28,506 nt of DNA from a virus (lineage: Duplodnaviria; Caudoviricetes). Positions 3 to 22,449 of the stretch are shown here, in pieces. The notes below the pieces were generated by a model that was not told the DNA's origin, did not search any database, and saw only the letters and a program-made list of their open reading frames with translations. The position numbers and the translations under genes were made by a program. Positions within the stretch are counted from its first letter, which is position 1. The number at the start of each line of letters is the position of its first letter. The stretch covers positions 1 to 28,506 of IMG/VR virus record IMGVR_UViG_3300047564_004945; one strand, given 5' to 3'.

Positions 3-596
3 ATTGGAGTAGGAACCACAAACCCATCACAAAAACTTGATGTTTTTGGTAATTTAAGACTGAGAAATGGTCTTATTGATTTCTTCAATAATGTTGGTGC
101 CGCAGGTAGTGTTTTAATTTCTACAGGCGCTGGAGTAAGTTGGTCAGCACAAGCACCAGGAGGAGCAACTTTACAGAATGATGTTGCCACTAATGCAACT
201 TGGTATCCAACTTTAGCTAGTACTACATCTGGTACTTATACCACTGCTTATGTTTCAAATACGAAACTCCAGTATAATCCATCTTCGGGAACGTTATTTG
301 CCACGGTCTTTACTTCTTTATCTGATAGAAATAAGAAAACTAATATTCGCAATATAGATAATTCTATAGAAATTGTAAAACAATTAGATGGAGTAAGATT
401 TGATTGGGTAGAAGATGGTAGTCCTTCAATTGGTGTTATAGCACAAGATATTGAAAAAGTATTGCCGGAAGTTGTCCAAACAAATGACGACGGAATGAAG
501 ACGGTTTCCTATGGAAATATAATAGGAGTACTAATTGAAGCAATCAAAGAACAACAAATTCGCATAGAAGAATTGGAGAAAAAAGTAAATGCCTAA
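3..596 (+). CDS. Tail fibre protein, 3' part (5'-truncated by window), with C-terminal peptidase S74 / intramolecular chaperone domain
   Basis: Not in the ORF track. Frame 3 is open from the window start: IGVGTTNPSQKLDVFGNLR...YNPSSGTLFATVFTSL-SDRNKKTNIRNIDNSIEIVKQLDGVRFDW...IGVIAQDIEKVLPEVV...VSYGNIIGVLIEAIKEQQIRIEELEKKVNA*. SD-x-x-x-K-x-NI, G(V/L)IAQ and the terminal coiled coil are hallmarks of the S74 autocleaving chaperone. Stop TAA 594-596 overlaps the next ATG (589). Confidence 0.9.
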   Translation: MGVGTTNPSQKLDVFGNLRLRNGLIDFFNNVGAAGSVLISTGAGVSWSAQAPGGATLQNDVATNATWYPTLASTTSGTYTTAYVSNTKLQYNPSSGTLFATVFTSLSDRNKKTNIRNIDNSIEIVKQLDGVRFDWVEDGSPSIGVIAQDIEKVLPEVVQTNDDGMKTVSYGNIIGVLIEAIKEQQIRIEELEKKVNA

Positions 597-3500
597 TCAG
601 TTTTTCTCACCAGAAGGAGATCTTGAAAATTATTTTGTAAATGAGTACTGGTTGATTGATCAGTACATTGGAGATCAGTTGTGGATATGGGGATCTGATG
701 CTTACAGTCATGGACTAGGTATTGGTGTAATAAATTCAAGTAGACAAACTCCAGTTACGACTACTGCCGGTGGGACTAATTGGAAACAAGTTAGTCTTGG
801 ATACGAACATTCTGCTGCTATTAAAACTGATGGAACTCTATGGACTTGGGGTACAGCTAGATTTTTGGGTAATGGAGATACCACTAACAATAAATCTACT
901 CCAATTACCACCTTTGCTGGTGGAACTGATTGGAAGCAAATTACAACTAGTAGAAGTGCCTCATTTGCGATCAAAAATGATGGAACTTTATGGACTTGGG
1001 GATATATTGGAATAGCGGGAGTTAATCTGTCATCTTTTATACATTTAAGCACTCCTGTCACTACCTTTGCCGGTGGAACTAATTGGAGGTCGGTTTCTGG
1101 AGGTGCTTTTCATGTAGCGGCAATTAAAACCGATGGAACCTTATGGACTTGGGGTGAGGGAGGTGATGATCAACTTGGAAATGGAAGTGATGATAGCAGA
1201 CTTACTCCAGTTACCACCTTTGCTGGGGGAAATGATTGGAAGCAAGTATCTCCCGGAAGAGCATTTACTGCAGCAATCAAGACTGATGGAACTCTTTGGA
1301 CTTGGGGATTTAATGGATTTAATCCAGATGGACAATTGGGGACAAATGATTCAATTTCTAGATCTACCCCTGTTACCACTTTTGTTGGTGGAACTAACTG
1401 GAAACAAGTATGTGCTGGTGCAAATCATGCAGCAGCAATCAAGACTGATGGAACTCTTTGGACTTGGGGAAATTCTTTGTATGGTCAGTTAGGAAATGGG
1501 CCACTTAGAAGAAGATTTACTCCAGTAACTACCTTTGCCGGAGGAAACAACTGGGCAGATACTCCTACAACAAATCCAGAAGATCTTTATACTTTGAATT
1601 CTGCTGCTAATGGTGGTGCGGCAATCAAGACTGATGGGACTTTATGGATTTGGGGATCTGGTTTTAGTGGGCAACTTGGAAACAATCAATCAGATCTTTC
1701 ATACACTCCAATTACTGTATTTTCTGGTGGAACTAATTGGAAACAAATAAGCACTTCATCTTCTTTTGTATCGGCAATCAAGACTGATGGAACTTTATGG
1801 ACTTGGGGATCTGGAATTAATGGAAGACTTGGAAGGTATACTGCATCTCAAGTAGAGACACCAGTAACTACCTTTGCCGGAGGAAACAACTGGGCAGATA
1901 CTCCTGCAGTAGAACCAGAAGATCTTTATACCTTAAGTGCCGGGGGTAATCATACGGCGGCGATCAAGACCGATGGAACCTTATGGACTTGGGGTAATGG
2001 AATTAATGGACAACTTGGAAATGCCTCAACTTTAATTAACAATTCCACTCCAGTCACCACATTTGCTGGAGGGACCAACTGGAAACAAGTAAGTTCTGGA
2101 AGTAATTTTACGGCAGTAGTTAAGACTGATGGAACTTTATGGGTTTGGGGTGAGGCAAGTAACGGAAAACTTGGTAATAATGTCTTAGATAATAATAAGT
2201 CCACTCCAGTTACTACCTTTGCCGGAGGAACCAATTGGAAACAAGTAAGTGCTGGGACATTTCACACATCAGCAATCAAAACTGATGGAACTCTTTGGAC
2301 TTGGGGTGCTGGAACTAATGCACGACTTGGAACCTTATCTTTGGGGAGCAGAATTACTCCAGTAACTACCTTTGCCGGAGGAAACAACTGGGCAGATACT
2401 CCTACAGTAGAACCAGAAGATCTTTATACCTTAAGTGCCGGGGGTAATCATACGGCGGCGATCAAGACCGATGGAACCTTATGGACTTGGGGTAATGGAA
2501 TTAATGGACAACTTGGAAATGCCTCAACTTTAATTAACAATTCCACTCCAGTCACCACATTTGCTGGAGGGACCAACTGGAAACAAGTAAGTTCTGGAAG
2601 TAATTTTACGGCAGTAGTTAAGACTGATGGAACTTTATGGACTTGGGGATTTGGATCTGGCGGATCTAGCGGTCAACTTGGAAATTCTCAAACAATTGAT
2701 GTATCCACCCCAATTACTACATTTTCCGGTGGAACTAATTGGAAACAAGTAAGTTCTGGAAATGCTCATACTGCAGCAATCAAAACCGATGGAACCTTAT
2801 GGACTTGGGGTGTTACCGGTAATGGTAGACTTGGAAATTCATCAATAAGTGGCATCGTATCTACTCCAGTTACAACATTCGCCGGAGGAACTGACTGGAA
2901 ATATGTTGGATGTGGTAATAATCATACTACAGCAGTTAAGACTGATGGAACCTTATGGGTTTGGGGTGAGGGAATTTCTGGAAAACTTGGTAATAATGCC
3001 ATATCTAATAGGTCCACTCCTATTACCACATTTGCTGGAGGGACCAACTGGAAACAAGCAAGCGGTGGATTAAGTCATTCTGCAGCAGTTAAAACTGATG
3101 GAACATTATGGGCTTGGGGACAAATAACTTTTGGACAAATTGGAAGTGGTGGTGCATCTAGTCCATTAACACCAGTTACCACATTTGCAGGAGGAACTGA
3201 CTGGAAACAAGTTGATTGTGGAAATGTTCATACAGCAGCAATTAAGACCGATGGAACCTTATGGACTTGGGGTTACAATTCCAGAGGGGAACTTGGAATA
3301 AATGATCTAGTAAATAGATCTACACCAGTTACTACCTTTGCCGGAGGAACCAACTGGAAACAAGTGAGTGCATTTTCTTTTACAATGGCACTTAGAGATG
3401 ATGGAGTGAATAAACAACTTTATGTGTGGGGTAATACTTCTAATGGAAGACTTGGAAATTCTAGAACTGGGGAAACACTATTTGAGTATCCTATAGAGGT

Positions 3501-5805
3501 TTACGGATGGTTTACTAATTGGAAACAAGTAAGTTCTGGAAATGCTCATACTGCAGCAATCAAAACCGATGGAACTTTATGGACTTGGGGTACTGCAAGT
3601 AATGGACGACTTGGAAATGCATCTCTAATTAATAGAACCACTCCAGTTACTACCTTTGCCGGAGGAACCGACTGGAAACAAGTAAGTTGTGGAGATGCTC
3701 ATACAGTAGCAATTAAGACCGATGGAACTCTTTGGACTTGGGGTTTGGGGGGTAATGGTCAAATTGGAGATGCCTCAGTTATAAGTACCAGGTCCACTCC
3801 TATTACTACATTTGCCGGAGGAACCAACTGGAAACAAGTGAGTTCTGGTAGTAATTATACTACAGCAGTTAAGACTGATGGAACCTTATGGACTTGGGGT
3901 GCTGGAAATAGTGGAAAACTTGGAAATGCGGACACAACCAGTAGATCCACTCCAGTCACTACATTTGCCGGAGGAACTAACTGGAAACAAGTAAGTTCTG
4001 GTAATGACCATACAGTAGCATTGAGAGATGATGGAGTAAATAAACAACTTTATGTTTGGGGAAATGCAAACCAAGGAAGATTAGGAAATTCTATCATAAA
4101 TGTTACACCATCAGTCTTTACTCCTATTACTACCTTTGCCGGAGGCACCAACTGGAAACAAGTAAGTTCTAGTGGTAATCATACTACAGCAGTAAAGACC
4201 GATGGAACCTTATGGACTTGGGGTTATGGAGCTTTTGGGAGACTTGGAAATGCGGACACGACTAGTAGATCCACTCCAATCACTACATTTGCCGGAGGAA
4301 CCGATTGGAGACAAGTGAGTTCTGGTAATGATCATACTTCGGCAATCAAGACTGATGGAACCTTATGGACTTGGGGATATGGAACTTCTGGACGACTTGG
4401 AAATGCAGTAACAACGGGTAATATATCCACTCCAGTCACTACCTTTGCCGGAGGAACCAACTGGAAACAAGTAAGTTCTGGAAGTAATTTTACGGCAGCA
4501 GTTAAGACTGATGGAACCTTATGGACTTGGGGTAGTAATACTGAAGGACAACTTGGAATTTTTTCTTTTGTTGTTGCTGGATTATCTGCAATATGTAATA
4601 CAACTACTATATTATCTGGAACAACTAGTTTTAATCCCGTACCTAACAATGGTCAAAGAATAATAACAGATGGTTCTGGTGGGATTTTAACTAACATTTC
4701 AACATTGATATTAGGTCCAGCATCTTTGAGTCAATCTACAACTCCAGATTTTAAAAATCCTAGTCCTCAATATGCCCCTGATGATGATGGATTTTGGGAA
4801 TTAACTTTACCCTTTAATATTTCTTATAATGGAGTATCGTATAATAAAATTTATGTAAGTACTAATTCTTATATAACTTTTGGAACAAAACCTGCCGATG
4901 ATTATGATCAAACTATTAATTGGAATTATACAACTGCAACTCCACCAATTCCAAAAATACAAATTTCAACCGCTGATAGATCTGCCCAAAGAATTTATTA
5001 TGGTACGGAAGGAACTTCTCCAAATAGAACTTATCGTGTAAGATTTGAAGGTCATATTTCTTTTCAAAATGGGATACTCGGATCACCAACTTTAGTTTGG
5101 GAAATGGTTTTTTATGAAAATATATCAAATCAAATTGACATTCAACCTGGAATTAATGATGATGCTTCAGGTTCTTTTATCGGCGTTACATCTACTCCGA
5201 TCACTACATTTGCCGGAGGAACCAACTGGAAACAAGTCAGTGCTGGAAATAATAATACATTCGCAATAAAAACTGATGGAACCCTATGGACTTGGGGTTA
5301 TGGAGGATATGGAGAACTTGGGAATGGGATAATAATGGGAACCGATGTAGTAGATGGACGTGTACCTACACCAATTACGACATTTCTTGGAGGAACAAAT
5401 TGGAAACAAGTGCATAGTTCTGGTGGTGTGCAAATTGCTCTTAATGATGATGGTGTAAATAAAAGACTATATGTTTGGGGATCTAATTTTGATGATTATG
5501 AACTTGGACTTGGTAATCCTCAGAATTGGGTTCCAGTAGAAGTTGATGGTAATGCTACTAATTGGAAGCAAGTGGATGGTGGATATGGAAATACGGCAGC
5601 AATCAAGACTGATGGAACCTTATGGACTTGGGGTTATAATGGTGATGGTCAGTTAGGAAATAATACTATACAGAGTTTTCAAAATAGAGCATACACTCCA
5701 ATCACTACGACTGCTGGAGGAACCAACTGGAAACAAGTGTCCTTTGGAAGGATACATGTATCAGCAGTACAATCTGGAATTAATGCAGAATATCCACTCT
5801 CATAA
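589..5805 (+). CDS. Giant RCC1/BLIP-II repeat beta-propeller protein 1 (28 repeats, four predicted nested 7-blade propellers, plus an inserted ~211-aa NIDO-like domain); putative virion adhesin
   Basis: 28 copies of LWxWG-x(n)-G(Q/R)LG-x(n)-TP(V/I)TTFAGGTNWKQVSxGxxHTAAIKTDGT, matching the RCC1 consensus. Overlaps the tail-fibre stop codon. Adhesin role is inferred from context. Confidence 0.9.
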   Translation: MPNQFFSPEGDLENYFVNEYWLIDQYIGDQLWIWGSDAYSHGLGIGVINSSRQTPVTTTAGGTNWKQVSLGYEHSAAIKTDGTLWTWGTARFLGNGDTTNNKSTPITTFAGGTDWKQITTSRSASFAIKNDGTLWTWGYIGIAGVNLSSFIHLSTPVTTFAGGTNWRSVSGGAFHVAAIKTDGTLWTWGEGGDDQLGNGSDDSRLTPVTTFAGGNDWKQVSPGRAFTAAIKTDGTLWTWGFNGFNPDGQLGTNDSISRSTPVTTFVGGTNWKQVCAGANHAAAIKTDGTLWTWGNSLYGQLGNGPLRRRFTPVTTFAGGNNWADTPTTNPEDLYTLNSAANGGAAIKTDGTLWIWGSGFSGQLGNNQSDLSYTPITVFSGGTNWKQISTSSSFVSAIKTDGTLWTWGSGINGRLGRYTASQVETPVTTFAGGNNWADTPAVEPEDLYTLSAGGNHTAAIKTDGTLWTWGNGINGQLGNASTLINNSTPVTTFAGGTNWKQVSSGSNFTAVVKTDGTLWVWGEASNGKLGNNVLDNNKSTPVTTFAGGTNWKQVSAGTFHTSAIKTDGTLWTWGAGTNARLGTLSLGSRITPVTTFAGGNNWADTPTVEPEDLYTLSAGGNHTAAIKTDGTLWTWGNGINGQLGNASTLINNSTPVTTFAGGTNWKQVSSGSNFTAVVKTDGTLWTWGFGSGGSSGQLGNSQTIDVSTPITTFSGGTNWKQVSSGNAHTAAIKTDGTLWTWGVTGNGRLGNSSISGIVSTPVTTFAGGTDWKYVGCGNNHTTAVKTDGTLWVWGEGISGKLGNNAISNRSTPITTFAGGTNWKQASGGLSHSAAVKTDGTLWAWGQITFGQIGSGGASSPLTPVTTFAGGTDWKQVDCGNVHTAAIKTDGTLWTWGYNSRGELGINDLVNRSTPVTTFAGGTNWKQVSAFSFTMALRDDGVNKQLYVWGNTSNGRLGNSRTGETLFEYPIEVYGWFTNWKQVSSGNAHTAAIKTDGTLWTWGTASNGRLGNASLINRTTPVTTFAGGTDWKQVSCGDAHTVAIKTDGTLWTWGLGGNGQIGDASVISTRSTPITTFAGGTNWKQVSSGSNYTTAVKTDGTLWTWGAGNSGKLGNADTTSRSTPVTTFAGGTNWKQVSSGNDHTVALRDDGVNKQLYVWGNANQGRLGNSIINVTPSVFTPITTFAGGTNWKQVSSSGNHTTAVKTDGTLWTWGYGAFGRLGNADTTSRSTPITTFAGGTDWRQVSSGNDHTSAIKTDGTLWTWGYGTSGRLGNAVTTGNISTPVTTFAGGTNWKQVSSGSNFTAAVKTDGTLWTWGSNTEGQLGIFSFVVAGLSAICNTTTILSGTTSFNPVPNNGQRIITDGSGGILTNISTLILGPASLSQSTTPDFKNPSPQYAPDDDGFWELTLPFNISYNGVSYNKIYVSTNSYITFGTKPADDYDQTINWNYTTATPPIPKIQISTADRSAQRIYYGTEGTSPNRTYRVRFEGHISFQNGILGSPTLVWEMVFYENISNQIDIQPGINDDASGSFIGVTSTPITTFAGGTNWKQVSAGNNNTFAIKTDGTLWTWGYGGYGELGNGIIMGTDVVDGRVPTPITTFLGGTNWKQVHSSGGVQIALNDDGVNKRLYVWGSNFDDYELGLGNPQNWVPVEVDGNATNWKQVDGGYGNTAAIKTDGTLWTWGYNGDGQLGNNTIQSFQNRAYTPITTTAGGTNWKQVSFGRIHVSAVQSGINAEYPLS
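1861..2640 (+). repeat. 282-bp direct repeat (1861-2142 and 2359-2640) within RCC1 gene 1
   Basis: By-eye alignment: offset 498 bp, one mismatch seen (G1906 vs A2404). A partial third copy lies at 9197-9330 in gene 2. Confidence 0.9.
4561..5193 (+). other. In-frame non-RCC1 insertion domain (NIDO/nidogen-G1-like beta-rich domain) within gene 1
   Basis: ~211 aa between GQLGI and TPITTFAGG of repeat 25. Contains DDDGFWELTLPFNISYNGVSYNKIYVSTNSYITFG and GTSPNRTYRVRF, recalling the DD..LPF.F.F.G..Y..(I/V)YV.TNG.I.F motif of NIDO-associated domains. Confidence 0.6.
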
Positions 5806-5825: not shown

Positions 5826-6575
5826 ATGGAAATCGCATTAATTCATAATAACTCATTAATACTTGGACCAATGGGACTAAATGTGCGTATGATTAATAGC
5901 GAATTGGAAGATCTTGAACTTGAAGATCGTATATCTTCTCAAAGTTTTAGAGATCTTCCAATTCATTTTTCGGATGGTTTAAGTCATCTTGTTTCGATAG
6001 AAAAAGAAATACCAATACATGATCTTAAATATCATAATATTGGCAATTACGCCTGGGAAATTGTAGAAGAAAATAATGTTCCGGTCAGTGTTAAATTAAC
6101 TTATACTATTATAGATAAAACTTTGGAAGAAGTCAAAGAACTTCGTAAAAAAGAAATTGCACCAATAAGAAAAAATAAAGAAAATACAGTTGCTAAAATT
6201 TTTGTTAATGGAAATCCTGTAGAAATATCAACTTCAAGAGAAGAGAGATTATTGCTAACTTCGAAATTATCTTCATTCACTGGGACTTGTAATTATAAAT
6301 TTAAAAATACTTGGGCATCAATTACTCCACAAAATCTTCAACAAATTATTGGAGAAATTGATGTAGTAGTTCAGCAGGCATTTGATTGGGAATTGCAAAA
6401 AATAAACGAAATAGATGAATGTGAAACTATTGATGATGTTTATAATGTTGTTTTGCTTGAAGATAAAGTTATGGAGAGAATGAAAAGAAATATGGAATCA
6501 AAAAATAAAAAAAAGTTGAGTTTATATGAATCCAATTCCAGTTCCGAATTAAATTCAGATTTTAATAATAATTAA
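5826..6575 (+). CDS. DUF4376-like phage tail-fibre-associated protein
   Basis: C-terminal half KTLEEVKELRKKEIAPIRKNKE...WASITPQNLQQIIGEIDVVVQQAFDWELQKINEIDECETIDDV resembles the helical DUF4376 pattern found next to tail-fibre genes. Confidence 0.65.
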   Translation: MEIALIHNNSLILGPMGLNVRMINSELEDLELEDRISSQSFRDLPIHFSDGLSHLVSIEKEIPIHDLKYHNIGNYAWEIVEENNVPVSVKLTYTIIDKTLEEVKELRKKEIAPIRKNKENTVAKIFVNGNPVEISTSREERLLLTSKLSSFTGTCNYKFKNTWASITPQNLQQIIGEIDVVVQQAFDWELQKINEIDECETIDDVYNVVLLEDKVMERMKRNMESKNKKKLSLYESNSSSELNSDFNNN

Positions 6576-6580
6576 AAACT

Positions 6581-9500
6581 ATGTCTTCCAATAGAGTTCA
6601 AACTAATTTTAGAGATAGTGATGGTATTGACTTAGGAACTAAATTAATTACCAAAGATTATTTGATCAGTGTCTATCCGGAGATTGGTCAGCAAATTGGA
6701 ATTCCTCCAGAACTTTGGATGTGGGGACAAGCAGGTTCAGGAAGACTCGGAAATAGAATTGCAACAGGTAGTATATCTACTCCAGTCACTACATTTACTG
6801 GAGGAACTGATTGGAAACAAGTAAGTACTGGTGCAAATAATACATTCGCAATAAAAACTGATGGAACCTTATGGTCTTGGGGATCAATTGTTACTTCAGT
6901 TCAATTTAATTCTTCATCTTCTGTTCCCAGAAGCGTTCCAATTACTGCTTTTTCTGGTGAAACTAATTGGAAACAAGTAAGTACTGGACAATTTAGTACA
7001 GCAGCAATCAAAACTGATGGAACTCTATGGTTTTGGGGTTCTAATTTTTCCAGAGTTTTTGGAAATAATGCTGTTTTAGGATCAGTAAATCCAGTTACTA
7101 CATTATATACCCAAGGAAGTTGGAAACAAGTAAGTCTTTCAAGTGATGAAATAGCAGCAATTAAGACTGATGGAACCTTATGGACTTGGGGTAGTAGCTC
7201 TGCTTCTTCTAACCTTGGTAGACCATATCCAGATTTTTATATATCAACACCAATCACCGTATCTTCTGGAGGAACTAACTGGGCAATTGTTGATACAGAT
7301 CCAGAAAATCTTTATACCTTAAGTGCTGGATTTCAACATACAGCAGCAATCAAAACTGATGGAACTCTATGGACTTGGGGTAATGGATTATATGGAAGAC
7401 TTGGAAATGCAGTAACGACAGGCAATGCATCCACTCCAGTTACTACATTTACTGGAGGAACCAACTGGAGGCAAGTAAGTGGTGGGGATCTTCATACCGC
7501 AGCAATTAAGACCGATGGAACCCTATGGACTTGGAGTTTTGGGGGAGATGGGCAACTTGGAAATGCAGATATAACCAATAAATCCACTCCCGTCACTACA
7601 TTTACTGGGGGAACGAACTGGAAACAAGTAAGCTCCGGACTTTATCATACATCAGCAATCAAGACTGATGGAACTCTATGGACTTGGGGAGTAGGAAATT
7701 ATGGCCAACTTGGAAATGCAATAATAACAGGCAATAGATCCACTCCAACCACAACATTTGCCGGTGGAACCAATTGGAAACAAGTAAGTTCTGGACTTCG
7801 TTATACCACAGCAATTAAGACTGATGGAACCTTATGGACTTGGGGATATGGAACTTCTGGACGACTTGGAAATGCAGTAACAACGGGTAATATATCCACT
7901 CCAGTCACTACCTTTGCTGGAGGAACCAATTGGAGACAAGTAAGTGGTGGAGGTGAACATACAACTGCAATCAAGACCGATGGAACCCTATGGACTTGGG
8001 GTGGTGGAAATTCTGGACAACTTGGAAATACGGGCATAACTAATAGATCTACTCCAGTCACCACATTTGCCGGGGGAACTAATTGGAAACAAGTCAATGC
8101 TGGAGGTTTTCATACAGCAGCAATCAAGACTGATGGAACCTTATGGACTTGGGGTGATGGTGGTTTGGGGGCACTTGGGAATTTCCAAGTAACTTTTAGA
8201 TCCACTCCAATCACCACATTTGCAGGAGGATCTAATTGGAAACAAGTAAGTTCGGGAAGTGCTCGTACAATGGCATTAAGGGATGATGGAGTTAATAAAG
8301 AACTTTTTACTTGGGGTAATGGATTATATGGAAGTCTTGGAAATGCAGATATAACCGATAGATCCACTCCTGTTACCACATTTGTCGGAGGAACCAACTG
8401 GGCAGATATAGATACTGATCCGGAAAATCTTTATACTTTATCTATATCGAGAGAAAGATCTGCCGCAATCAAGACTGATGGAACTCTATGGGTTTGGGGG
8501 AATGGGTCTTATTATTTGGGAATAGGTGATAATATAGAGTATACTTTTACACCAGTCACTACATTTACTGGAGGAATCAACTGGAAACAAATAAGTGTTG
8601 GATACAATCATACAGCAGCAATCAAAACCGATGGAACTTTGTGGACATGGGGAAGAAGTCAAGATGTTGGTATTGTTATTTTTAATATTAGTACTCCGGC
8701 AACTACCTTTGCTGGAGGAAACAACTGGGCAGATACTCCTACAGTAGAACCAGAAGATCTTTATACCTTAAGTGCTGGAAATTTACATACTTCTGCAATT
8801 AAGACTGATGGAACCCTATGGGCTTGGGGTAGTGCATCTTTAGGAACACTCGGAAATGCAGTCGCATCAGGTAATATATCTACTCCAGTAACCACATTTG
8901 CCGGAGGAACCAACTGGAAACAAATAAGTGGTGGAAATTCTCATACATCAGCAATCAAGACTGATGGAACCCTATGGACTTGGGGTAATGGATTTAATGG
9001 AAGACTCGGAAATAGAATTGCAACAGGGTCTAGATCTACTCCAATCACTACATTTGCCGGAGGAACCGATTGGAAACAAGTGAGTTCTGGTAATGATCAT
9101 ACTTCGGCAATCAAGACTGATGGAACTTTATGGACTTGGGGTAGTGGAACTAATGGACAACTTGGAAGACCGCAATTTATATCTGCAATAAGTACTCCAG
9201 TAACTACCTTTGCCGGAGGAAATAACTGGGCAGATACTCCTACAGTAGAACCGGAAGATCTTTATACCTTAAGTGCCGGGGGTAAACATACGGCGGCGAT
9301 CAAGACCGATGGAACCTTATGGACTTGGGGAGATAATGTCTATGGTCAACTCGGAACTAATGATTTATTTAGTAAAATAACTCCCGTCACTACATTTTCT
9401 GGAGGCACTAACTGGAAACAAATTTCTTGTAATGTTTATACGGAAGCAACTCCTTTCGGAGAAAGTATTTTTGCAATTAAAACCGATGGAACTTTATGGG

Positions 9501-12500
9501 GATGGGGTTCAAATGGTTCTGATAATTTTGGTAGACTTGGCATTAATTCAAGTATTAATATTAATATATCCACTCCAATTACTACATTTGCTGGAGGAAC
9601 TAATTGGAAACAAGTTTCATGCAAATACAACCACGTTTGTGCAATTAAGACTGATGGAACCTTATGGGTTTGGGGTACAGGAAATTTTGGAAGACTTGGA
9701 ACTAATAATCAATCAAATAACCTAACACCAGTTACTACATTCTCTGGAGGAACTAATTGGAAACAAGTTAGTGCTGGAGCATTTCATACGGTAGCAATCA
9801 AAACCGATGGAACCTTATGGACTTGGGGTATTAATAATAATAGACAACTTGGATTGAATACTGATACTGCCAATAAACTAACACCAGTTACTACCTTTGC
9901 CGGAGGAACCGACTGGAAACAAGTCAGTTCTGGTATTAATCAGACGGCAGCAGTTAAAACCGATGGAACCTTATGGGTTTGGGGTAATGGAGTTAATGGA
10001 CGACTTGGAAATGGCATTATAACAGGTAATAGATCTACTCCAGTCACTACATTTGCTGGAGGAACTAATTGGAAACAAGTGAGTTCTGGTAATGACCATA
10101 CAGCAGCAGTCAAAACCGATGGAACTCTTTGGACCTGGGGATTTGGAGGTTCTGGAAAACTTGGAAATTTGGTAGCGGTAGGTCTTAGTGTATCCACTCC
10201 TGTTACTACATTTGCCGGAGGAACTAACTGGAAACAAGTAAGTTCTGGTAATGACCATACAGTAGCATTGAGAGATGATGGAGTAAATAAGCAACTTTAT
10301 GTTTGGGGAAATACTAATTTATTAGCAGTAAATATTCTAAATGATAATGAACCAAAAACAACATTTACTGGAGGAACCAACTGGAAACAAGTGAGTTCTG
10401 GAAATCAACATACAGTAGCAGTCAAGACCGATGGAACCTTATGGACTTGGGGTTATGGATCTTTTGGGAGACTTGGAAATGCGGACACGACTAGTAGATC
10501 CACTCCAGTCACTACATTTACTGGAGGAACTGATTGGAGACAAGTAGGTTCCGGAAGTTTACATACATCAGCAATCAAAACTGATGGAACTCTTTGGACT
10601 TGGGGTAATGGAAATTCCGGAAGACTTGGAAATGCAGTAACAACCAATGTATCCACTCCTGTTACTACCTTTGCCGGAGGAACCAACTGGAAACAAATAA
10701 ATGTTGGACCTGGACATAATGCTGCAATTAAGACCGATGGAACCTTGTGGACTTGGGGTAATGGAATTAGTGGACGACTTGGAAATGCCTCAACTTCAAT
10801 TATCAACTCCACTCCTATTACCACATTTGCCGGAGGAACCAACTGGAAACAAGTAAGTTCTGGCACCAATCATACAGTAGCACTTTTTGATGATGGAGTA
10901 AATAAAAGATTATATTCATTTGGAGATATTACATATACTGGAACAGGATCAATACGATTTTTTGTTCCTACTCTTATTGATAATAATGTCAACTGGAAGC
11001 AAGTAAGTGCTGGATCTAGGCATACAGCAGCAGTTAAAAATGATGGAACTTTATGGGTTTGGGGTAATGGAACTACTGGGGCTCTTGGTGGGTTTTCTTC
11101 ATTTAATAGATTTACTCCAACCACAACATTTGCCGGAGGAACCAATTGGAAACAAGTAAGTTCTGGAGATGCTCATACAGCAGCAATTAAGACCGATGGA
11201 ACCTTATGGACTTGGGGTCGTGGAACTTATGGAAGACTTGGAAATGGTATTGTAACTGGTGATAGACTTACTCCAGTCACCACATTCGCCGGAGGAACCA
11301 ACTGGAAACAAGTGAGTGCTGGGGCTCTTCATACATCAGCAATCAAGACCGATGGAACCTTGTGGACTTGGGGTAATGGAATTAGTGGACGACTTGGAAA
11401 TGCCTCAACTTCAATTATCAACTCCACTCCTGTTACTACATTTGCCGGAGGAACCAACTGGAAACAAGTCAGTGCTGGAGAACTTCATACGGCAGCAATT
11501 AAGACTGATGGAACCTTATGGACTTGGGGTTATGGAAATTCTGGACAACTTGGAAATACGGGCATAACTAATAGATCTACTCCAGTCACCACATTTGCCG
11601 GGGGAACTAATTGGAAACAAGTCTTTACCAGTCTTTCTCATACAATAGCACTTAAAGATGATGGAATTAATAAGGAATTGTATATATTTGGTGAAAATAA
11701 TTATTTAATAGGGAATACTAATTCAACTACTAGTAATGGAAATATTCCTGCAACTACCTTTGCTGGTGGAACCAACTGGAAACAAGTAAGTATTTCGGGA
11801 AGAAATACGGCAGCAGTTAAAAATGATGGAACTCTATGGACTTGGGGTCTTAATGCAAAAGGAGAACTTGGAAATACTAAAACAGAAGAGAGATCAACTC
11901 CAGTAACTACCTTTGCCGGTGGAACTAATTGGAAACAAGTGGATGTTGGATACAATCATACAGTAGCAATCAAGACAGATGGAACTCTATGGACTTGGGG
12001 TTATGATTCGAATTTAGGAATTGGATCATTATTATTTGAGCAATATACTAGTACTCCAATAACTACTTTTGCCGGTGGAACTAACTGGGCAAATACGCCA
12101 ACATCAAATCCAGAAGATCTTTATACTATATCATCTTCATCAGGATTTAGTTTTGAGTTTGATTATGCATCGATGGCAATTAAGACCGATGGAACTTTAT
12201 GGGTTTGGGGCACAAATCAATATGGATCATTGGGTACAAATAATACGAATAATGCTTTTACACCAGTTACCACATTCACAGGGGGGACAAATTGGAAGCA
12301 AATAGTAGCAGGATATTATACTACGGCAGCAATTAAGACCGATGGAACTCTATGGACTTGGGGAGTGGAATTTGATGGTAGACTTGGTAATAATAAAGTT
12401 TCATCTGCAAATGTGCTTACTCCAATCACTACATTTGCGGGAGGATCTAATTGGAAACAAGTGAGTACTGGATATTCTGCAACTGGAGCAATTAAGACCG

Positions 12501-13456
12501 ATGGCACTTTATGGTTATGGGGTTATAATATAAATGGGCAAGTTGGTAATAATAATGATATTGAAGTTAATACTCCAGTCACCACATTTGCCGGAGGAAC
12601 CAACTGGAAACAAATAAGTTGTGGAGGATATACAACCGCAGCAATCAAAACTGATGGGACATTATGGGTTTGGGGTGCTAATTTTTATGGTCAACTTGGA
12701 GATCTTGGTTATGGATTTCAATCTCTTACTCCAATCACTACTTTTGCCGGTGGAACTAATTGGAAACAAGTAAGTTCTGGACAAAGTCACATTGCGGCAG
12801 TTAAGACTGATGGAACCTTATGGTTATGGGGAACGAATAGAAACGGAGAACTTGGAAATGGTGAATCTAATACATTTACAGATGTAGTTACTCCAATCAC
12901 TACTTTTGCCGGTGGAACTAACTGGAAACAAGTAAGTTGTGGAGGGGAACTATCGGATTCACGTTATTCATCTACAGCAGCAATTAAGACTGATGGAACT
13001 CTATGGACTTGGGGGTATAATTATTCTGGAGTATTAGGTATAAACACTACAGACAATTCATCTACTCCGGTAACTACATTTGCTGGTGGAACTGATTGGG
13101 TACAAGTTTCTACATCTGCATCAAGTACTTTAGCACTTAAAAATAATGGATCTTTATATGTTTTTGGAGTTACAGCATCCTTGGGAGTTAATTATTCAAA
13201 TGTTGTTAGTACTCCATCCACCACATTTGCAGGAGGATCTAATTGGAAACAAGTGAGTAGTTCGTATTCAACGGGAGCAATCAAAACTGATGGAACTCTA
13301 TGGACTTGGGGTCTTGCCGGAGCCGGTAAACTTGGAAACGGGACAATAATAGGTTCTATATTATCTCCGATTACCACATTTGCAGGTGGAACTGATTGGA
13401 AACAAGTAAGTATTGGTCCAAATAATGCAGCAGCAATCAAGTCCGTAGATTTTTGA
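6581..13456 (+). CDS. Giant RCC1/BLIP-II repeat beta-propeller protein 2 (42 repeats, six predicted 7-blade propellers, branched/nested); putative virion adhesin
   Basis: 42 RCC1-type repeats with the same scaffold as gene 1, after a 44-aa N-terminal leader with no signal-peptide-like hydrophobic core. Confidence 0.9.
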   Translation: MSSNRVQTNFRDSDGIDLGTKLITKDYLISVYPEIGQQIGIPPELWMWGQAGSGRLGNRIATGSISTPVTTFTGGTDWKQVSTGANNTFAIKTDGTLWSWGSIVTSVQFNSSSSVPRSVPITAFSGETNWKQVSTGQFSTAAIKTDGTLWFWGSNFSRVFGNNAVLGSVNPVTTLYTQGSWKQVSLSSDEIAAIKTDGTLWTWGSSSASSNLGRPYPDFYISTPITVSSGGTNWAIVDTDPENLYTLSAGFQHTAAIKTDGTLWTWGNGLYGRLGNAVTTGNASTPVTTFTGGTNWRQVSGGDLHTAAIKTDGTLWTWSFGGDGQLGNADITNKSTPVTTFTGGTNWKQVSSGLYHTSAIKTDGTLWTWGVGNYGQLGNAIITGNRSTPTTTFAGGTNWKQVSSGLRYTTAIKTDGTLWTWGYGTSGRLGNAVTTGNISTPVTTFAGGTNWRQVSGGGEHTTAIKTDGTLWTWGGGNSGQLGNTGITNRSTPVTTFAGGTNWKQVNAGGFHTAAIKTDGTLWTWGDGGLGALGNFQVTFRSTPITTFAGGSNWKQVSSGSARTMALRDDGVNKELFTWGNGLYGSLGNADITDRSTPVTTFVGGTNWADIDTDPENLYTLSISRERSAAIKTDGTLWVWGNGSYYLGIGDNIEYTFTPVTTFTGGINWKQISVGYNHTAAIKTDGTLWTWGRSQDVGIVIFNISTPATTFAGGNNWADTPTVEPEDLYTLSAGNLHTSAIKTDGTLWAWGSASLGTLGNAVASGNISTPVTTFAGGTNWKQISGGNSHTSAIKTDGTLWTWGNGFNGRLGNRIATGSRSTPITTFAGGTDWKQVSSGNDHTSAIKTDGTLWTWGSGTNGQLGRPQFISAISTPVTTFAGGNNWADTPTVEPEDLYTLSAGGKHTAAIKTDGTLWTWGDNVYGQLGTNDLFSKITPVTTFSGGTNWKQISCNVYTEATPFGESIFAIKTDGTLWGWGSNGSDNFGRLGINSSININISTPITTFAGGTNWKQVSCKYNHVCAIKTDGTLWVWGTGNFGRLGTNNQSNNLTPVTTFSGGTNWKQVSAGAFHTVAIKTDGTLWTWGINNNRQLGLNTDTANKLTPVTTFAGGTDWKQVSSGINQTAAVKTDGTLWVWGNGVNGRLGNGIITGNRSTPVTTFAGGTNWKQVSSGNDHTAAVKTDGTLWTWGFGGSGKLGNLVAVGLSVSTPVTTFAGGTNWKQVSSGNDHTVALRDDGVNKQLYVWGNTNLLAVNILNDNEPKTTFTGGTNWKQVSSGNQHTVAVKTDGTLWTWGYGSFGRLGNADTTSRSTPVTTFTGGTDWRQVGSGSLHTSAIKTDGTLWTWGNGNSGRLGNAVTTNVSTPVTTFAGGTNWKQINVGPGHNAAIKTDGTLWTWGNGISGRLGNASTSIINSTPITTFAGGTNWKQVSSGTNHTVALFDDGVNKRLYSFGDITYTGTGSIRFFVPTLIDNNVNWKQVSAGSRHTAAVKNDGTLWVWGNGTTGALGGFSSFNRFTPTTTFAGGTNWKQVSSGDAHTAAIKTDGTLWTWGRGTYGRLGNGIVTGDRLTPVTTFAGGTNWKQVSAGALHTSAIKTDGTLWTWGNGISGRLGNASTSIINSTPVTTFAGGTNWKQVSAGELHTAAIKTDGTLWTWGYGNSGQLGNTGITNRSTPVTTFAGGTNWKQVFTSLSHTIALKDDGINKELYIFGENNYLIGNTNSTTSNGNIPATTFAGGTNWKQVSISGRNTAAVKNDGTLWTWGLNAKGELGNTKTEERSTPVTTFAGGTNWKQVDVGYNHTVAIKTDGTLWTWGYDSNLGIGSLLFEQYTSTPITTFAGGTNWANTPTSNPEDLYTISSSSGFSFEFDYASMAIKTDGTLWVWGTNQYGSLGTNNTNNAFTPVTTFTGGTNWKQIVAGYYTTAAIKTDGTLWTWGVEFDGRLGNNKVSSANVLTPITTFAGGSNWKQVSTGYSATGAIKTDGTLWLWGYNINGQVGNNNDIEVNTPVTTFAGGTNWKQISCGGYTTAAIKTDGTLWVWGANFYGQLGDLGYGFQSLTPITTFAGGTNWKQVSSGQSHIAAVKTDGTLWLWGTNRNGELGNGESNTFTDVVTPITTFAGGTNWKQVSCGGELSDSRYSSTAAIKTDGTLWTWGYNYSGVLGINTTDNSSTPVTTFAGGTDWVQVSTSASSTLALKNNGSLYVFGVTASLGVNYSNVVSTPSTTFAGGSNWKQVSSSYSTGAIKTDGTLWTWGLAGAGKLGNGTIIGSILSPITTFAGGTDWKQVSIGPNNAAAIKSVDF

Positions 13457-17793: not shown

Positions 17794-20700
17794 ATGCCAA
17801 CATTTTATAACTTTACACAAGACGGTCTTACATATAGTTTTGATGATATTTTCGTCAAAGCAGATTTGTTTCGCCAAGGAAATTTGTGGAATTGGGGTAG
17901 AGGTGTAGCAGGAGCTCTTGGTGATGGGTTTTCTAATAGTTTTAGATCGACTCCAATTACCACATTTGTTGGTGGTAGTAATTGGAAACAAATTAGTACC
18001 GGAGGTCAGCATACTGTAGCAGTTAAGACTGATGGAACTTTATGGGTTTGGGGGTATAATAATAGAGGACAACTTGGAAATGCATCTATAACTGATAGAT
18101 CAACTCCAGTTACCACCTTTGCCGGGGGAAACGATTGGAAACAGGCAGAAGGTGGAACTAGTCATACAGTAGCCATTAAAACTGATGGAACTTTATGGTC
18201 TTGGGGTATGAATGATCAAGGTCAACTTGGGGTAAATGCTAGAGATAATAGTAGTCCTTTTAGTAGATCAACTCCAGTAACTACTTTTGTTGGTGGAACT
18301 AATTGGAAACAAGCAAGTGCTGGATATCAATATTCTGCGGCAATTAAGACTGATGGAACTTTATGGACTTGGGGATATGCATATTTTGGACAATTAGGTA
18401 AAGGTGGTTTTTATACATTAGTTAGATCCACTCCAATGACAACATTTGCCGGTGGTAATAACTGGGCAGATACTTCGGATACTTATTCGCCAGAAGATCT
18501 TTATACTATAGGTGGTGGAACTTTTTTTAATTTAGCAGTTAAAAATAATGGAACATTATGGACTTGGGGTTATGGATATCGAGGACAACTTGGAAATGCA
18601 ACTATTGCAACTAATATTTCTACTCCGATTACAACTTTTTCTGGTGGAACTAATTGGAAAGAAATAAGTGCTGGAAATGATCATGTTGCAGCAATCAAGA
18701 CTGATGGAACATTATGGGTGTGGGGATATGCAAATAACGGCCAACTCGGAACAAGTGATTTAATACCACAAAGATCTACTCCAATCACAACCTTTGCCGG
18801 AGGAACCAACTGGAAACAAATAAGTTCTGGAAATAATAATACTGCAGCAATCAAAACTGATGGAACATTATGGACTTGGGGTGGTGGATTTAGTGGAGAA
18901 CTTGGAAATGCAGATACAACTCTTAGATCCACTCCAATAACCACATTTACTGGAGGAACCGATTGGAAGCAAGTAAGTGTTGGATCAGGTCACTTAATAG
19001 CAATTAAGACTGATGGAACCTTATGGACTTGGGGTAATAGTAACTTTGGACAACTTGGAAATGCGTCTTCAGTTAAAACATCAACTCCAGTCACAACATT
19101 TGCCGGAGGAACTAACTGGAAACAAGTGAGTGCTGGTCTTTATAGTTCTACGGCAATTAAGACTGATGGAACCCTGTGGACTTGGGGTATGGGAAGTAAT
19201 GGAAAACTCGGAACTAATCAAGTATCTTCCTCATCTACTCCAGTCACCACTTTTGCCGGAGGAACCAACTGGAAACAAGTTAGCTCCGGTGGTTATCATA
19301 CATCCGCAGTAAAAACCGATGGAACCTTATGGACTTGGGGGTTTAATCTTTATGGACAAATCGGAAATGCAAGTGTAAATCAATCATTAACGCCAGTTAC
19401 CACTTTTATTGGGGGAACTGATTGGAAACAGGTTTATTCTTCATGGCAATCTACATTAGCAATAAAGGATGATGGATTTAATACACGTCTTTATTTGTTT
19501 GGTAGAAATTATAATGCAGAACTTGGAAATAAGGATATAGGAACTATAACAGGAAATATATCTACTCCAGTCACCACCTTTGCCGGAGGAACTGACTGGG
19601 CAACAGTTGAAACAGATCTTTATACTTTAAGTGCTGGAGGATCTTCTTCTTCGGCAATCAAAACCGATGGAACTTTATGGACTTGGGGGAATAACGGTCG
19701 TGGACAACTTGGAAATGGTTCTACAACAAATAGATCAACTCCTATTACTACATTTGCCGGTGGAACAAATTGGATACAAGTTAGTAGTACATCTCAGCAT
19801 AGTGCAGCAATTAAGACCGATGGAACCCTATGGACTTGGGGTAATGGAACTTTTGGACGACTTGGAAATGCAGTTACAACTAATGCATCTACTCCAGTCA
19901 CAACATTTGCCGGAGGAACAAACTGGAAACAAGTGAGTTGCCGTGATGATACTACAGTAGCTGCTCATACCGCAGCAATCAAGACCGATGGAACCTTATG
20001 GGTTTGGGGTTTTGGTGGTAATGGAAGACTTGGAAATGGTGTTACTAATTTTAGTGGTACATCAACTCCAATCACCACCTTTGCCGGAGGAAGCGACTGG
20101 AAACAAGTAAGTTGTGGATTTACTTATACAGTAGCAATTAAGACTAATGGAACATTATGGGCTTGGGGTACGTGTCAAAATGGAGCACTTGGAAATGGAG
20201 TCATAACAGGTAATATATCTACACCAATCACCACATTTACAGGAGGAACCAACTGGAGACAAGTGAGTGCTGGTTTTGATACTACATCAGCAATTAAGAC
20301 TGATGGAACCTTATGGGTTTGGGGTTCGGGAGGTCGTGGGACACTTGGAAATGGAATAACAGCAAATGGTAGATCCACCCCAATCACCACATTTGCAGGA
20401 GGAACTAACTGGAGACAAGTGAGTGCTGGATCGCAGCATATAGCAGCAGTCAAAACTGACGGAACATTATGGACTTGGGGTTATACAAAAGGTGGGCAAC
20501 TTGGTATTGGATATGGGGCGTATGATTTTGGTAGTACTATTGAGTATAATGTAAGATCCACTCCTGTTACCACATTTGTCGGAGGATCTAACTGGAAACA
20601 AGTTAGTGCTGGAGGTCAGCATACAGTAGCACTCAATGATGATGGTGCAAATAAAAGATTGTACACCTGGGGATATAATCGAGATAATCAAATTGGAGAT

Positions 20701-22449
20701 AGTTTTTTTGTTGAGATTAATGATGCTCCTGGAAAAGTGGGGGATAGTTCTAATTGGAAACAAGTTTCTTGTTCATATCATTCTACTGCTGCACTTAAAA
20801 CTGATGGAACTCTTTGGACTTGGGGGGATAATGCACAAGGTCAACTTGGGACTGCTCAATTATTTAAAGGTAGTGCTGAACCAATTACTACATTTGCCGG
20901 AGGAACCGACTGGAAACAAGTCAGTGCCGGTGGATATTATTCAGTAAACATGATGGCAGCAATTAAAAATGATGCGACTTTATGGACTTGGGGTAATTCA
21001 TATCTTGGAATACTTGGAAATACAAAGTCTCCTCTTTCCACTGCACCCGAAACTGAACTTTATGTGTCTACTCCAATCACCACATTTGCCGGAGGAATAG
21101 ACTGGAAACAAGTCAGTGCCGGTGGATATCATATGTCGGCAGTTAAAACAAATGGAACTCTATGGACTTGGGGTAGTGGTACTCAGTATCAATTAGGTAT
21201 AGGATATGATCCTCTTCAACCATCTAGATCGACACCAGTCACAACATTTGCCGGAGGAACTAATTGGAAGTCCGTTGGATCTTCTGGAGGATACAATGTT
21301 TCTGCCATACAATACAACGATATTCTCACAAATCCACCAGATGTGTTTAGGTTATTTACTTGGGGTTATGGATTTACTGCTGCTCTTGGAAATGCATCAG
21401 ATGCATCAAATTCTTCCGTACCAATTACAACATTTGCTGGAGGAAGTAATTGGAGGCAGGTAAGTGTAGCAAGAGATGTTACATGTGCAATCAAAACTGA
21501 TGGAACTTTATGGATATGGGGAGATGCTGCAAGCGGTTTACTTGGTAATGGATTAACAACAGGTTTTATATCCACTCCAATCACCACATTCTCTGGAGGA
21601 ACTAATTGGAAACAAGTCAGTATTGAAACTTACCACGCAGCAGCAATCAAAACTGATGGTACTCTTTGGACTTGGGGAGAAGGATTTGCTGGTTATCTTG
21701 GAACTAATGATTTAAATGATAGATCAACTCCAGTCACAACATTTGCCGGAGGAACTAATTGGAAACAAGTTTCTTCAGGAAGATATCACGTAGCAGCAAT
21801 TAAAACTGATGGAACTCTATGGACTTGGGGTGGTAATGCTGATGGTGAACTTGGAAATGCATCTACATCTAATACATCTATATCCACCCCAATCACCACA
21901 TTTGCCGGAGGGACCAACTGGAAACAAGTCGCTGGTGGTTATGCACATACAGCAGCAATCAAGACTGATGGAACTTTATGGACTTGGGGTCTAGGTCAAG
22001 ATGGAAGAATTGGAAATGCAGTTATAACAAACACTAGCGTATCAACGCCAGTTACTACCTTTGCCGGAGGGACTAATTGGGAACAAGTTTCTTGTGGAAG
22101 TTTGCATGTAGCAGCAATCAAAACTGATGGAACTTTGTGGACTTGGGGAGGTACAGCATCTGGAGCACTTGGAGATGGTACTGCTTCTTTTTTAATTGGT
22201 CGTTCAACTCCAATTACAACGTTTGCCGGAGGAACCAACTGGAAACAAATAGGTGCTGGAGGATATTGTACTGCTGCAATTAAAACAGATGGAACTCTAT
22301 GGACTTGGGGAGTTGGAGATGATGGAAGACTTGGAAATAGAGTAACAACCGGTGATATATCCACTCCAGTCACTACATTTGCTGGAGGAACTAATTGGGA
22401 AAGTTTGGAATGTGGATATAATAGAGTTGGTACAATCAGAAAAAATTAA
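17794..22449 (+). CDS. Giant RCC1/BLIP-II repeat beta-propeller protein 3 (28 repeats, four predicted 7-blade propellers); putative virion adhesin
   Basis: 28 RCC1-type repeats with the same scaffold as genes 1 and 2, after a 30-aa leader. Confidence 0.9.
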   Translation: MPTFYNFTQDGLTYSFDDIFVKADLFRQGNLWNWGRGVAGALGDGFSNSFRSTPITTFVGGSNWKQISTGGQHTVAVKTDGTLWVWGYNNRGQLGNASITDRSTPVTTFAGGNDWKQAEGGTSHTVAIKTDGTLWSWGMNDQGQLGVNARDNSSPFSRSTPVTTFVGGTNWKQASAGYQYSAAIKTDGTLWTWGYAYFGQLGKGGFYTLVRSTPMTTFAGGNNWADTSDTYSPEDLYTIGGGTFFNLAVKNNGTLWTWGYGYRGQLGNATIATNISTPITTFSGGTNWKEISAGNDHVAAIKTDGTLWVWGYANNGQLGTSDLIPQRSTPITTFAGGTNWKQISSGNNNTAAIKTDGTLWTWGGGFSGELGNADTTLRSTPITTFTGGTDWKQVSVGSGHLIAIKTDGTLWTWGNSNFGQLGNASSVKTSTPVTTFAGGTNWKQVSAGLYSSTAIKTDGTLWTWGMGSNGKLGTNQVSSSSTPVTTFAGGTNWKQVSSGGYHTSAVKTDGTLWTWGFNLYGQIGNASVNQSLTPVTTFIGGTDWKQVYSSWQSTLAIKDDGFNTRLYLFGRNYNAELGNKDIGTITGNISTPVTTFAGGTDWATVETDLYTLSAGGSSSSAIKTDGTLWTWGNNGRGQLGNGSTTNRSTPITTFAGGTNWIQVSSTSQHSAAIKTDGTLWTWGNGTFGRLGNAVTTNASTPVTTFAGGTNWKQVSCRDDTTVAAHTAAIKTDGTLWVWGFGGNGRLGNGVTNFSGTSTPITTFAGGSDWKQVSCGFTYTVAIKTNGTLWAWGTCQNGALGNGVITGNISTPITTFTGGTNWRQVSAGFDTTSAIKTDGTLWVWGSGGRGTLGNGITANGRSTPITTFAGGTNWRQVSAGSQHIAAVKTDGTLWTWGYTKGGQLGIGYGAYDFGSTIEYNVRSTPVTTFVGGSNWKQVSAGGQHTVALNDDGANKRLYTWGYNRDNQIGDSFFVEINDAPGKVGDSSNWKQVSCSYHSTAALKTDGTLWTWGDNAQGQLGTAQLFKGSAEPITTFAGGTDWKQVSAGGYYSVNMMAAIKNDATLWTWGNSYLGILGNTKSPLSTAPETELYVSTPITTFAGGIDWKQVSAGGYHMSAVKTNGTLWTWGSGTQYQLGIGYDPLQPSRSTPVTTFAGGTNWKSVGSSGGYNVSAIQYNDILTNPPDVFRLFTWGYGFTAALGNASDASNSSVPITTFAGGSNWRQVSVARDVTCAIKTDGTLWIWGDAASGLLGNGLTTGFISTPITTFSGGTNWKQVSIETYHAAAIKTDGTLWTWGEGFAGYLGTNDLNDRSTPVTTFAGGTNWKQVSSGRYHVAAIKTDGTLWTWGGNADGELGNASTSNTSISTPITTFAGGTNWKQVAGGYAHTAAIKTDGTLWTWGLGQDGRIGNAVITNTSVSTPVTTFAGGTNWEQVSCGSLHVAAIKTDGTLWTWGGTASGALGDGTASFLIGRSTPITTFAGGTNWKQIGAGGYCTAAIKTDGTLWTWGVGDDGRLGNRVTTGDISTPVTTFAGGTNWESLECGYNRVGTIRKN

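Follow-up and report, generated by a model that had tools for sequence, protein, structure and literature searches.

How does a single chain of several dozen near-identical repeats divide into folded domains? The question is raised by the record of a lake virus, IMGVR_UViG_3300047564_004945 (Duplodnaviria; Caudoviricetes), whose positions 1 to 28,506 were analyzed as one stretch, referred to here as the window. This 28.5-kb contig is a phage tail-fibre region with three very long RCC1-repeat genes (genes 1–3, Table 1), of which gene 2 has 42 repeats of ∼51 amino acids (aa). The explanation that we moderately favour is that the six groups of seven repeats in gene 2 fold as a branched tree of propellers, forming a multivalent host-binding head anchored on the fibre tip.

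A bracket grammar in gene 2 and its relatives

Gene 2 matches the Pfam families RCC1 (E 2.9e-253), WD40_RLD (1700 bits against a cut-off of 150) and RCC1_2. Its repeats were cut at the LWxWG strand, giving a strand order of C-D-A-B within each; the strands were named from knowledge of the fold, consistent with the DSSP assignment of the P0180 structure model described below. Two motifs mark particular repeats. OPEN (W-A...-LYTL/I) is an insertion of 9–10 aa in the D-to-A link, and CLOSE (AL-xDDGxNK) is a B-C hairpin longer by 3 aa that is followed by LY or LF replacing LW. OPEN occurs at repeats 4, 11, 13, 16, and 34 and CLOSE at repeats 10, 22, 26, 31, and 40, and a stack parse of these markers divides the gene into six units of seven repeats each: a (4–10), d (16–22), c (13–15 + 23–26), b (11–12 + 27–31), e (34–40), and a root (1–3 + 32–33 + 41–42). 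A first-pass annotation of this DNA had proposed the same parse, root(a, b(c(d)), e), which was reproduced here, together with ten OPEN and CLOSE coordinates, all of which proved exact on motif mapping. A caveat is that one of the five CLOSE motifs (at 13133) is weak. Of the 6.2e10 balanced ways to place five pairs on 42 repeats, 179,088 yield units of seven throughout (p = 2.9e-6). For gene 1, with OPEN at repeats 6, 8, and 11 and CLOSE at repeats 17, 21, and 26, exact enumeration given balanced brackets puts an all-seven parse at p = 5.4e-4. Both values are post hoc because the markers were defined on this window, and the out-of-sample test of the bracket rule is that of the relatives.

Relatives were drawn from 239 proteins (the top 120 matches per search) and from 148 complete open reading frames of IMG/VR loci, comprising 301 distinct sequences, of which 155 passed a filter for the repeat of the gene 2 subfamily. 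The set includes genes 2 and 3 of the window and a near-identical gene 1, and its counts are not independent draws because the sequences are related. The number of repeats is divisible by seven in 138 of the 155 family proteins, as is the length of 137 of the 145 strict OPEN-to-CLOSE spans. Of the 39/155 proteins without a marker, 32 are single seven-repeat propellers; judged by sequence, single seven-repeat genes are the common state of the family (32/155, and also the three orthologues in phage S-SRM01 discussed below). Among the marked proteins, 73/116 parse automatically with every node seven, in 26 architectures. Nesting reaches a depth of five (P0003), and the number of propellers per protein ranges from 1 to 7. 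Of the insertions at blades 1–6, 59/60 use blades 2–5, and two occupied loops of one parent are 2 or 3 blades apart in 7/7 cases.

The rule has exceptions, which weigh against it. Eight of the 145 spans are not multiples of seven (four of 6 repeats and one each of 4, 11, 18, and 33), 43/116 marked proteins fail the automatic parse, and P0194 has an OPEN without a CLOSE. Inspection of 18 of the 43 failures rescued 7 by a variant OPEN placed where seven is restored; P0001 requires one unmarked CLOSE, an OPEN is paired with a degenerate CLOSE in P0021, P0158, P0177, and P0220, and 5 remain irregular.

Children of six or four repeats are found at L002:2931-5042 (P0173) and in P0165, P0176, P0010, and P0143, and these may be six-bladed variants, recombination intermediates or assembly collapses. 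In four proteins of 14 repeats (P0221, P0235, P0227, and P0223), CLOSE is absent and the D-to-A link carries an insertion of another kind, which might be a second junction motif or one that has decayed.

It is conceivable, though extremely improbable, that the whole architecture is a mis-assembly of near-identical repeats. Short-read unitigs of two studies match several junction motifs without differences and break within gene 2, none spanning it, and the six-repeat children could be collapses. Against this, a second contig, L001 of IMG/VR, carries gene 2 with 0/6876 nt different, and assembly errors would not yield counts of seven across 26 architectures.

If the markers were instead duplication relics or surface decorations, the 42 repeats might close as six consecutive rings of seven. 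The number 42 (6 × 7) is compatible with both readings, any seven repeats could close given their near identity, and CLOSE is missing in some members. However, linkers are missing from gene 2 at repeats 7/8, 14/15 and the further borders of this series, whereas gene 3 has a long linker at its single tandem junction, relics would not preserve multiples of seven in 137/145 spans, and both structure models presented below close a middle block rather than the first seven repeats. We therefore consider consecutive rings very improbable and return to the nested tree.

Branching is seen in the grammar of relatives as well. Two loops of one parent are used in 7 of the 26 distinct architectures, and three natural proteins of 21 repeats (P0128, P0130, and P0133) have the 3+2+2 root of gene 2 with two leaves. 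Two-loop branching in gene 2 is on these grounds very likely, with a and b probably siblings in one root loop and e in another. The branched root of the first-pass annotation is thus upheld by the bracket grammar, whereas its structural support stops at the one-level model of P0180.

Predicted structures and the crossing between propellers

P0180 is a natural 14-repeat relative (773 aa, 5+(7)+2) with a gene-2-type N-terminus. It was folded by AlphaFold2 from an alignment of 61 rows, which contained no single-propeller rows and in which 20/60 rows lacked OPEN at the query column. The best model has a predicted local distance difference test score (pLDDT) of 80.9 and a predicted template modelling score of 0.65, with the lowest confidence at the two junctions. 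When it was compared with 48,161 solved chains, HERC2 RLD3 aligned over 353/366 residues (root-mean-square deviation [rmsd] 1.8, Z 49.8) spanning residues 44..770 and BLIP-II over 266/271 residues spanning 42 to 770, whereas UVR8 aligned over 346 residues (rmsd 1.6, Z 51.8) spanning 325..690 with its last strand unmatched; other RCC1 chains cover ∼325 to 690 and many WD40 chains ∼315..679. The range of HERC2 set against those of UVR8 and the WD40 chains indicates that this model has a P0180 root made of separate segments, with a child that begins at the D strand of the OPEN repeat and ends at the C strand that follows CLOSE. In the model seven blades close one ring, and the parent ring is predicted, for one level of nesting, to be completed from both sides of the inserted child (313–690). 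Foldseek with the same model named RCC1 folds without giving aligned ranges, and the ESM Atlas returned RCC1 viral clusters only.

Folding one piece of gene 2 itself, aa 680–1480 (repeats 13–27, c(d)), gave a poor model, with a pLDDT of 44.6 from a 10-row alignment. The ring that closes in it, at low confidence, is the middle block d (residues 211–585) and not a consecutive window from the start. The nested reading draws support from the bracket rule in relatives, from the confident P0180 model and, at low confidence, from this model of repeats 13–27, and we consider the nested fold of gene 2 highly probable. The quality of the gene 2 model tells against it, as does the structure search having used only the best of five P0180 models, whose pLDDT ranged from 80.9 to 59.3.

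For the site at which the chain crosses from parent to child, we lean toward the C-D loop, with a child whose first strand is D of the OPEN repeat and whose last is the post-CLOSE C. A child starting at the D strand is seen in the confident P0180 model, although not in the poor gene 2 model. In 7/7 cases, a foreign domain found inside a repeat occupies the C-D loop (10 long segments were examined, the other 3 being fused repeats or C-terminal extensions). The D strand and its link carry TP[VI]TTF in 1390/1576 normal repeats and 131/174 OPEN repeats but in only 25/185 repeats after CLOSE, consistent with a special parent-child interface.

A crossing at the D-to-A link is possible but clearly the less likely course. 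The account built on it, in which the protein is nested and branched and has the same function but each child is entered via the OPEN linker and runs contiguously from A to D as a UVR8-like 4+0 propeller, is unlikely as a whole. Three observations nevertheless favour it over a C-D crossing: the D-to-A insertion OPEN has a fixed length (10 aa in 168/185) and varies less than CLOSE; the C-D loop is normal at sibling junctions (TP[VI]TTF in 11/11), which is easier to explain with a D-to-A crossing; and in the poor gene 2 model the UVR8 alignment (212..587) includes the last strand of UVR8, so that the post-CLOSE D strand joins the child there. They are opposed by the confident P0180 model, which has the D strand of the OPEN repeat in the child, by a return link that is not lengthened (median 31 vs 32 residues from the start of strand C to W), and by the position of the foreign inserts. 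A crossing at the B-C hairpins, which would make the child a canonical 2+2 RCC1 unit, is improbable: the hairpin before OPEN is normal in sequence, CLOSE can be absent, the true B-C crossing of gene 3 has a much longer linker, and the P0180 model retains both hairpins. Because the child is probably inserted in the C-D loop, the unit borders probably lie about half a repeat off the hairpin counts of the first-pass annotation.

In the confident model of the relative, each child is predicted to be an independent closed propeller and its parent to close from discontinuous pieces. With a C-D crossing, the chain would exit a parent blade within its C-D loop, supply the outer D strand of the child first and return after the child's last C strand, producing a 1+3 velcro closure by D-strand swap. 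The OPEN loop, the CLOSE hairpin and the altered D strand of the parent would form the parent-child interface. Whatever the crossing, children seem to avoid the blades next to the parent's own attachment and never to occupy adjacent blades, as steric crowding would predict.

Repeat 25 of gene 1 (window 4555–5187) contains a ∼200-aa non-RCC1 domain within its C-D loop, and inserts of similar size occur in the same loop of P0006, P0011, P0020, P0154, and L057. The gene 1 insert had no Pfam match, and the ESM Atlas gave only weak leads (0.89–0.90), unnamed or NIDO-like. In gene 3, the tandem, un-nested propeller is joined to the root by a long B-C linker (∼21300–21360, repeats 21–22), which is also present in P0021 and P0158.

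Table 1. Positions in the window of genes, junction motifs and predicted propeller units
Feature	Position	Strand	Remark
Tail-fibre gene, 3' end	3..596	+	Peptidase_S74 intramolecular chaperone, conserved tip at 141–320; 8-nt overlap with gene 1
Gene 1	589..5805	+	RCC1 paralogue, 28 repeats; parse gives four propellers nested three deep
249-aa gene between genes 1 and 2	5826..6575	+	Weak PHROG tail-fibre match; position conserved
Gene 2	6581..13456	+	2291-aa RCC1-repeat protein, 42 repeats; parse root(a, b(c(d)), e)
Gene 3	17794..22449	+	RCC1 paralogue, 28 repeats, 1551 aa; parse root(a,b) + one tandem propeller
Gene 2 N-terminal anchor, 44 aa	6581..6712	+	Conserved by alignment; predicted docking on fibre tip and gene 3 N-terminus
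Root propeller segment 1, aa 45–221	6713..7243	+	Border assumes C-D loop crossing
Propeller a, leaf, 373 aa	7244..8362	+	In root blade 3
OPEN, repeat 4	7280..7315	+	
CLOSE after repeat 10	8273..8317	+	
Propeller b part 1	8363..8689	+	Sibling of a, same root loop
OPEN, repeat 11	8399..8434	+	
Propeller c part 1	8690..9190	+	
OPEN, repeat 13	8726..8764	+	
Propeller d, innermost leaf, 385 aa	9191..10345	+	Low-confidence model: ring closed over gene-2 aa ∼890–1264
OPEN, repeat 16	9227..9265	+	
CLOSE after repeat 22	10265..10309	+	
Propeller c part 2	10346..10960	+	c total 372 aa
CLOSE after repeat 26	10880..10924	+	
Propeller b part 2	10961..11740	+	b total 369 aa
CLOSE after repeat 31	11648..11692	+	
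Root propeller segment 2, aa 1721–1823	11741..12049	+	
Propeller e, leaf, 386 aa	12050..13207	+	In root blade 5, second branch
OPEN, repeat 34	12086..12124	+	
Weak CLOSE after repeat 40	13133..13168	+	Without hairpin extension; recognized by AL and LYVFG alone
Root propeller segment 3, aa 2210–2291	13208..13453	+	Three root segments total 362 aa

Fibre-tip anchor, receptor binding and host

Gene 1 lies directly behind the S74 fibre gene and gene 2 two genes behind it, and the 8-nt overlap of fibre gene and gene 1 is found in 10/13 distinct fibre tips. The ∼55 fibre residues just ahead of the chaperone are conserved, whereas the upstream part varies. The three paralogues have short N-termini, each conserved within its paralogue, with weak likeness between paralogues. 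A complex of three fibre tips and the three paralogue N-termini, with gene 2 as partner, was predicted with a score of 0.68, compared with 0.01 for the best of 3 controls and 0.00 with the fibre replaced; the mark for this score was reached by 116/157 solved and 2/215 mismatched pairs in a calibration that is only roughly valid here. Runs agreed in at least 9% of contacts, and the partner pLDDT was at least 44. In the predicted complex, gene-2 residues 6–13 contact fibre-tip residues 54–60 and the N-terminus of gene 3. One of the three runs was low (0.01, 0.81, and 0.68) and the gene 1 N-terminus falls outside the confident contacts of the partner, both of which weaken the case for docking. 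A sequence search of solved structures returned no relative of the fibre tip or of the gene 2 anchor. From the modelling, the gene 2 N-terminus likely anchors on the fibre tip, and we predict that the paralogue N-termini cap the trimeric fibre once the S74 chaperone is cleaved off. Collagen-like Gly-X-Y repeats stand directly upstream of the conserved fibre tip in L004, L006, L009, L016, L033, and L072.

Variable positions in the propellers cluster in two loops, C-D (at its start and middle) and A-B, and the variable A-B positions align with the GWRHT motif of UVR8, which we take to be the interaction face of that protein. That the propellers bind host surface receptors is rather likely; the variable A-B and C-D loops of each would make the contacts, and up to 14 propellers per fibre (4+6+4) would raise avidity, reach or receptor range. 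A Ran-GEF or chromatin function seems implausible in a bacteriophage, and we read the RCC1 name as a fold label.

The tree could also be real without being a receptor-binding part of the virion, serving instead as an intracellular binder, a decoy, a glycosylated shield or a drag or capture appendage. RCC1 folds are general protein-binding scaffolds, the virion role is read from sequence and models, and the RCC1 genes are interleaved with glycosyltransferase, sulfotransferase, and methyltransferase genes. Against such roles, the RCC1 genes stand behind the S74 fibre gene, which gene 1 overlaps, and the predicted docking depends on the fibre tip. In addition, S74 fibres without a tip domain of their own use separate adhesins (bioRxiv 10.64898/2026.05.12.724579). 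We regard a non-adhesin role as improbable and the receptor-binding head as the better account. The full set of interleaved genes (TPR-like, 2OG-Fe(II) oxygenase, glycosyltransferase, sulfotransferase, and methyltransferase; 13487–17777 and 22491–28268) keeps its order across loci and in S-SRM01, and its products might modify the Thr/Ser-rich fibre or the propellers.

A search of phage records with a single-propeller relative matched 29/50,697, with 2 above 60%, both from Synechococcus phage S-SRM01, the closest cultured phage to that relative (63% identity). A common gene order, fibre(S74)-RCC1-small gene-RCC1-TPR-2OG-...-RCC1-sulfotransferase, is present in S-SRM01 and many IMG/VR loci. Because gene order and closest cultured relative point to S-SRM01, the source phage is probably a freshwater cyanomyophage with a cyanobacterial host. 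The S-SRM01 orthologues gp335, gp337, and gp344 (NC_070963.1) match the three RCC1 genes of the window and their order downstream of the fibre gene but differ in being single propellers (344–405 aa). They are annotated merely as ‘regulator of chromosome condensation’, and a text search of the S-SRM01 genome paper (PMC8557907) found mention of neither RCC1 nor chromosome condensation. More distant phages (L026, L018, L020, and L027–L031) have three to five single RCC1 genes consecutively, near fibre and sulfotransferase genes. No RNA data containing the gene 2 sequence are listed.

Known systems and the growth of propeller trees

The window family shares its repeat and its seven-bladed fold with the RCC1-like domains of RCC1, UVR8, HERC RLDs, RPGR, and BLIP-II (PF00415, PF13540, and PF25390). 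Solved members are single propellers, whereas the window family is predicted to place RCC1 within RCC1, up to five levels deep, with dedicated junction motifs. The RCC1 domain of UBR5 is discontinuous with unrelated inserts (bioRxiv 10.1101/2022.11.03.515015). DDB1-type triple propellers have BPB as an insertion. A topological parallel is the yeast Trm734 triple WD40 propeller, in which the chain enters BPB from strand c7 of BPA via BPB's own d1 and then resumes BPA at d7, while BPA in turn is placed between strands d7 and a1 of BPC (PMC6847430). This strand-swap topology is the one predicted for the gene 2 family. Trm734 as described there is WD40 and has three fixed domains in an unbranched chain, with insertion in the closing blade, whereas the gene 2 family is RCC1 with 1–7 propellers, uses blades 2–5, and has siblings, branches, and near-identical repeats; the WD40 sequence repeats and three fixed domains that define the Trm734/DDB1 family are not found in it. 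In Si3 of cyanobacterial RNA polymerase, SBHM-2 to -5 are non-tandem repeats assembled from segments that lie far apart in the sequence (PMC10895346), but these are small sandwich-barrel hybrid motifs in one conserved arrangement, and the part of that paper used here describes no branching or strain-level variation.

A functional parallel is provided by T2, T6, and S16, in which a chaperone-bearing fibre, gp37, is cleaved and capped by a separate downstream protein with variable loops, gp38 (bioRxiv 10.64898/2026.05.12.724579). Like gp38, the RCC1 proteins of the window have their genes downstream of a fibre gene that includes an intramolecular chaperone. The systems differ in that gp38 is a single small adhesin with a different fold, whereas the window has three paralogous RCC1 proteins, which are predicted to sit together on the tip and any of which can be extended into a tree. 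The whole gene 2 protein consists of RCC1 repeats by Pfam, PHROGs, and fold search, placing it outside the sequence family and fold of gp38; no gp38 homology appeared among the PHROGs matches of the window proteins, although no search was aimed at gp38. By analogy, the gene 2 protein may work like gp38 without being a member of its family.

One- or two-level propeller insertion, non-tandem repeats, and foreign inserts in an RCC1 domain are therefore already known. In the open-access literature, searched at title and abstract level without supplements, we found neither nested RCC1 propellers nor phage RCC1 fibre caps, nor any self-similar, variable, recursive and branched nesting of propellers with junction motifs.

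Traces of how such trees might grow are present in the DNA. Across the three window genes, the repeats share 153 exact blocks of at least 30 nt, including 236 nt common to gene 1 repeats 8–10 and 11–13 and 62 nt common to gene 1 repeat 11 and gene 2 repeat 13, and the OPEN and constant repeat segments are common to the genes as exact blocks. In P0012, repeats 5–11 match 11–17 and repeats 21–25 match 29–33 (0.73–0.93 vs a median of 0.59) at offsets of 6 and 8, as expected from a two-level cassette copied into the innermost position. Double-crossover recombination would copy an OPEN...CLOSE cassette into a constant repeat, and selection would remove repeat counts other than seven. Two observations weigh against this route: gene 2 retains no long level-to-level duplication, and the close-side duplication of gene 1 has an offset of 3 where 4 is expected, so that gene 1 fits on the OPEN side only. 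Position-specific descent of the gene 2 blades could not be recovered, the repeats sharing short exact DNA blocks. The near-identical genome L001 has a single propeller in place of the 1551-aa, four-propeller gene 3. A genome with an identical gene 2 has a 393-aa single-propeller gene 3 (L074:291-1472) and a gene 1 lacking 7 residues. A single-propeller gene 3 beside an identical gene 2 indicates that whole alleles change quickly.

Taken further, the window genes may represent a family with a recursive grammar, in which the OPEN...CLOSE cassette grafts whole propellers into any of four loops of any other propeller to give strain-specific branched trees, and three trees form a heterotrimeric cap with 14 variable faces per fibre, a dendrimer-like adhesin with no solved counterpart. 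We put this broader proposal forward tentatively, as somewhat less probable than its negation.

Repeat proteins normally lengthen like beads added to a string, whereas the window family appears to grow as trees with motif-marked junctions, and tandem domain annotation and the linear chopping of chains for structure prediction will misread such nested proteins. If confirmed, the fold would offer a natural test of how near-identical repeats find their partners across 1,500–2,000 residues and a rule by which branched, multivalent proteins could be built out of a single chain. It would also provide a candidate receptor-binding apparatus of freshwater cyanomyophages.

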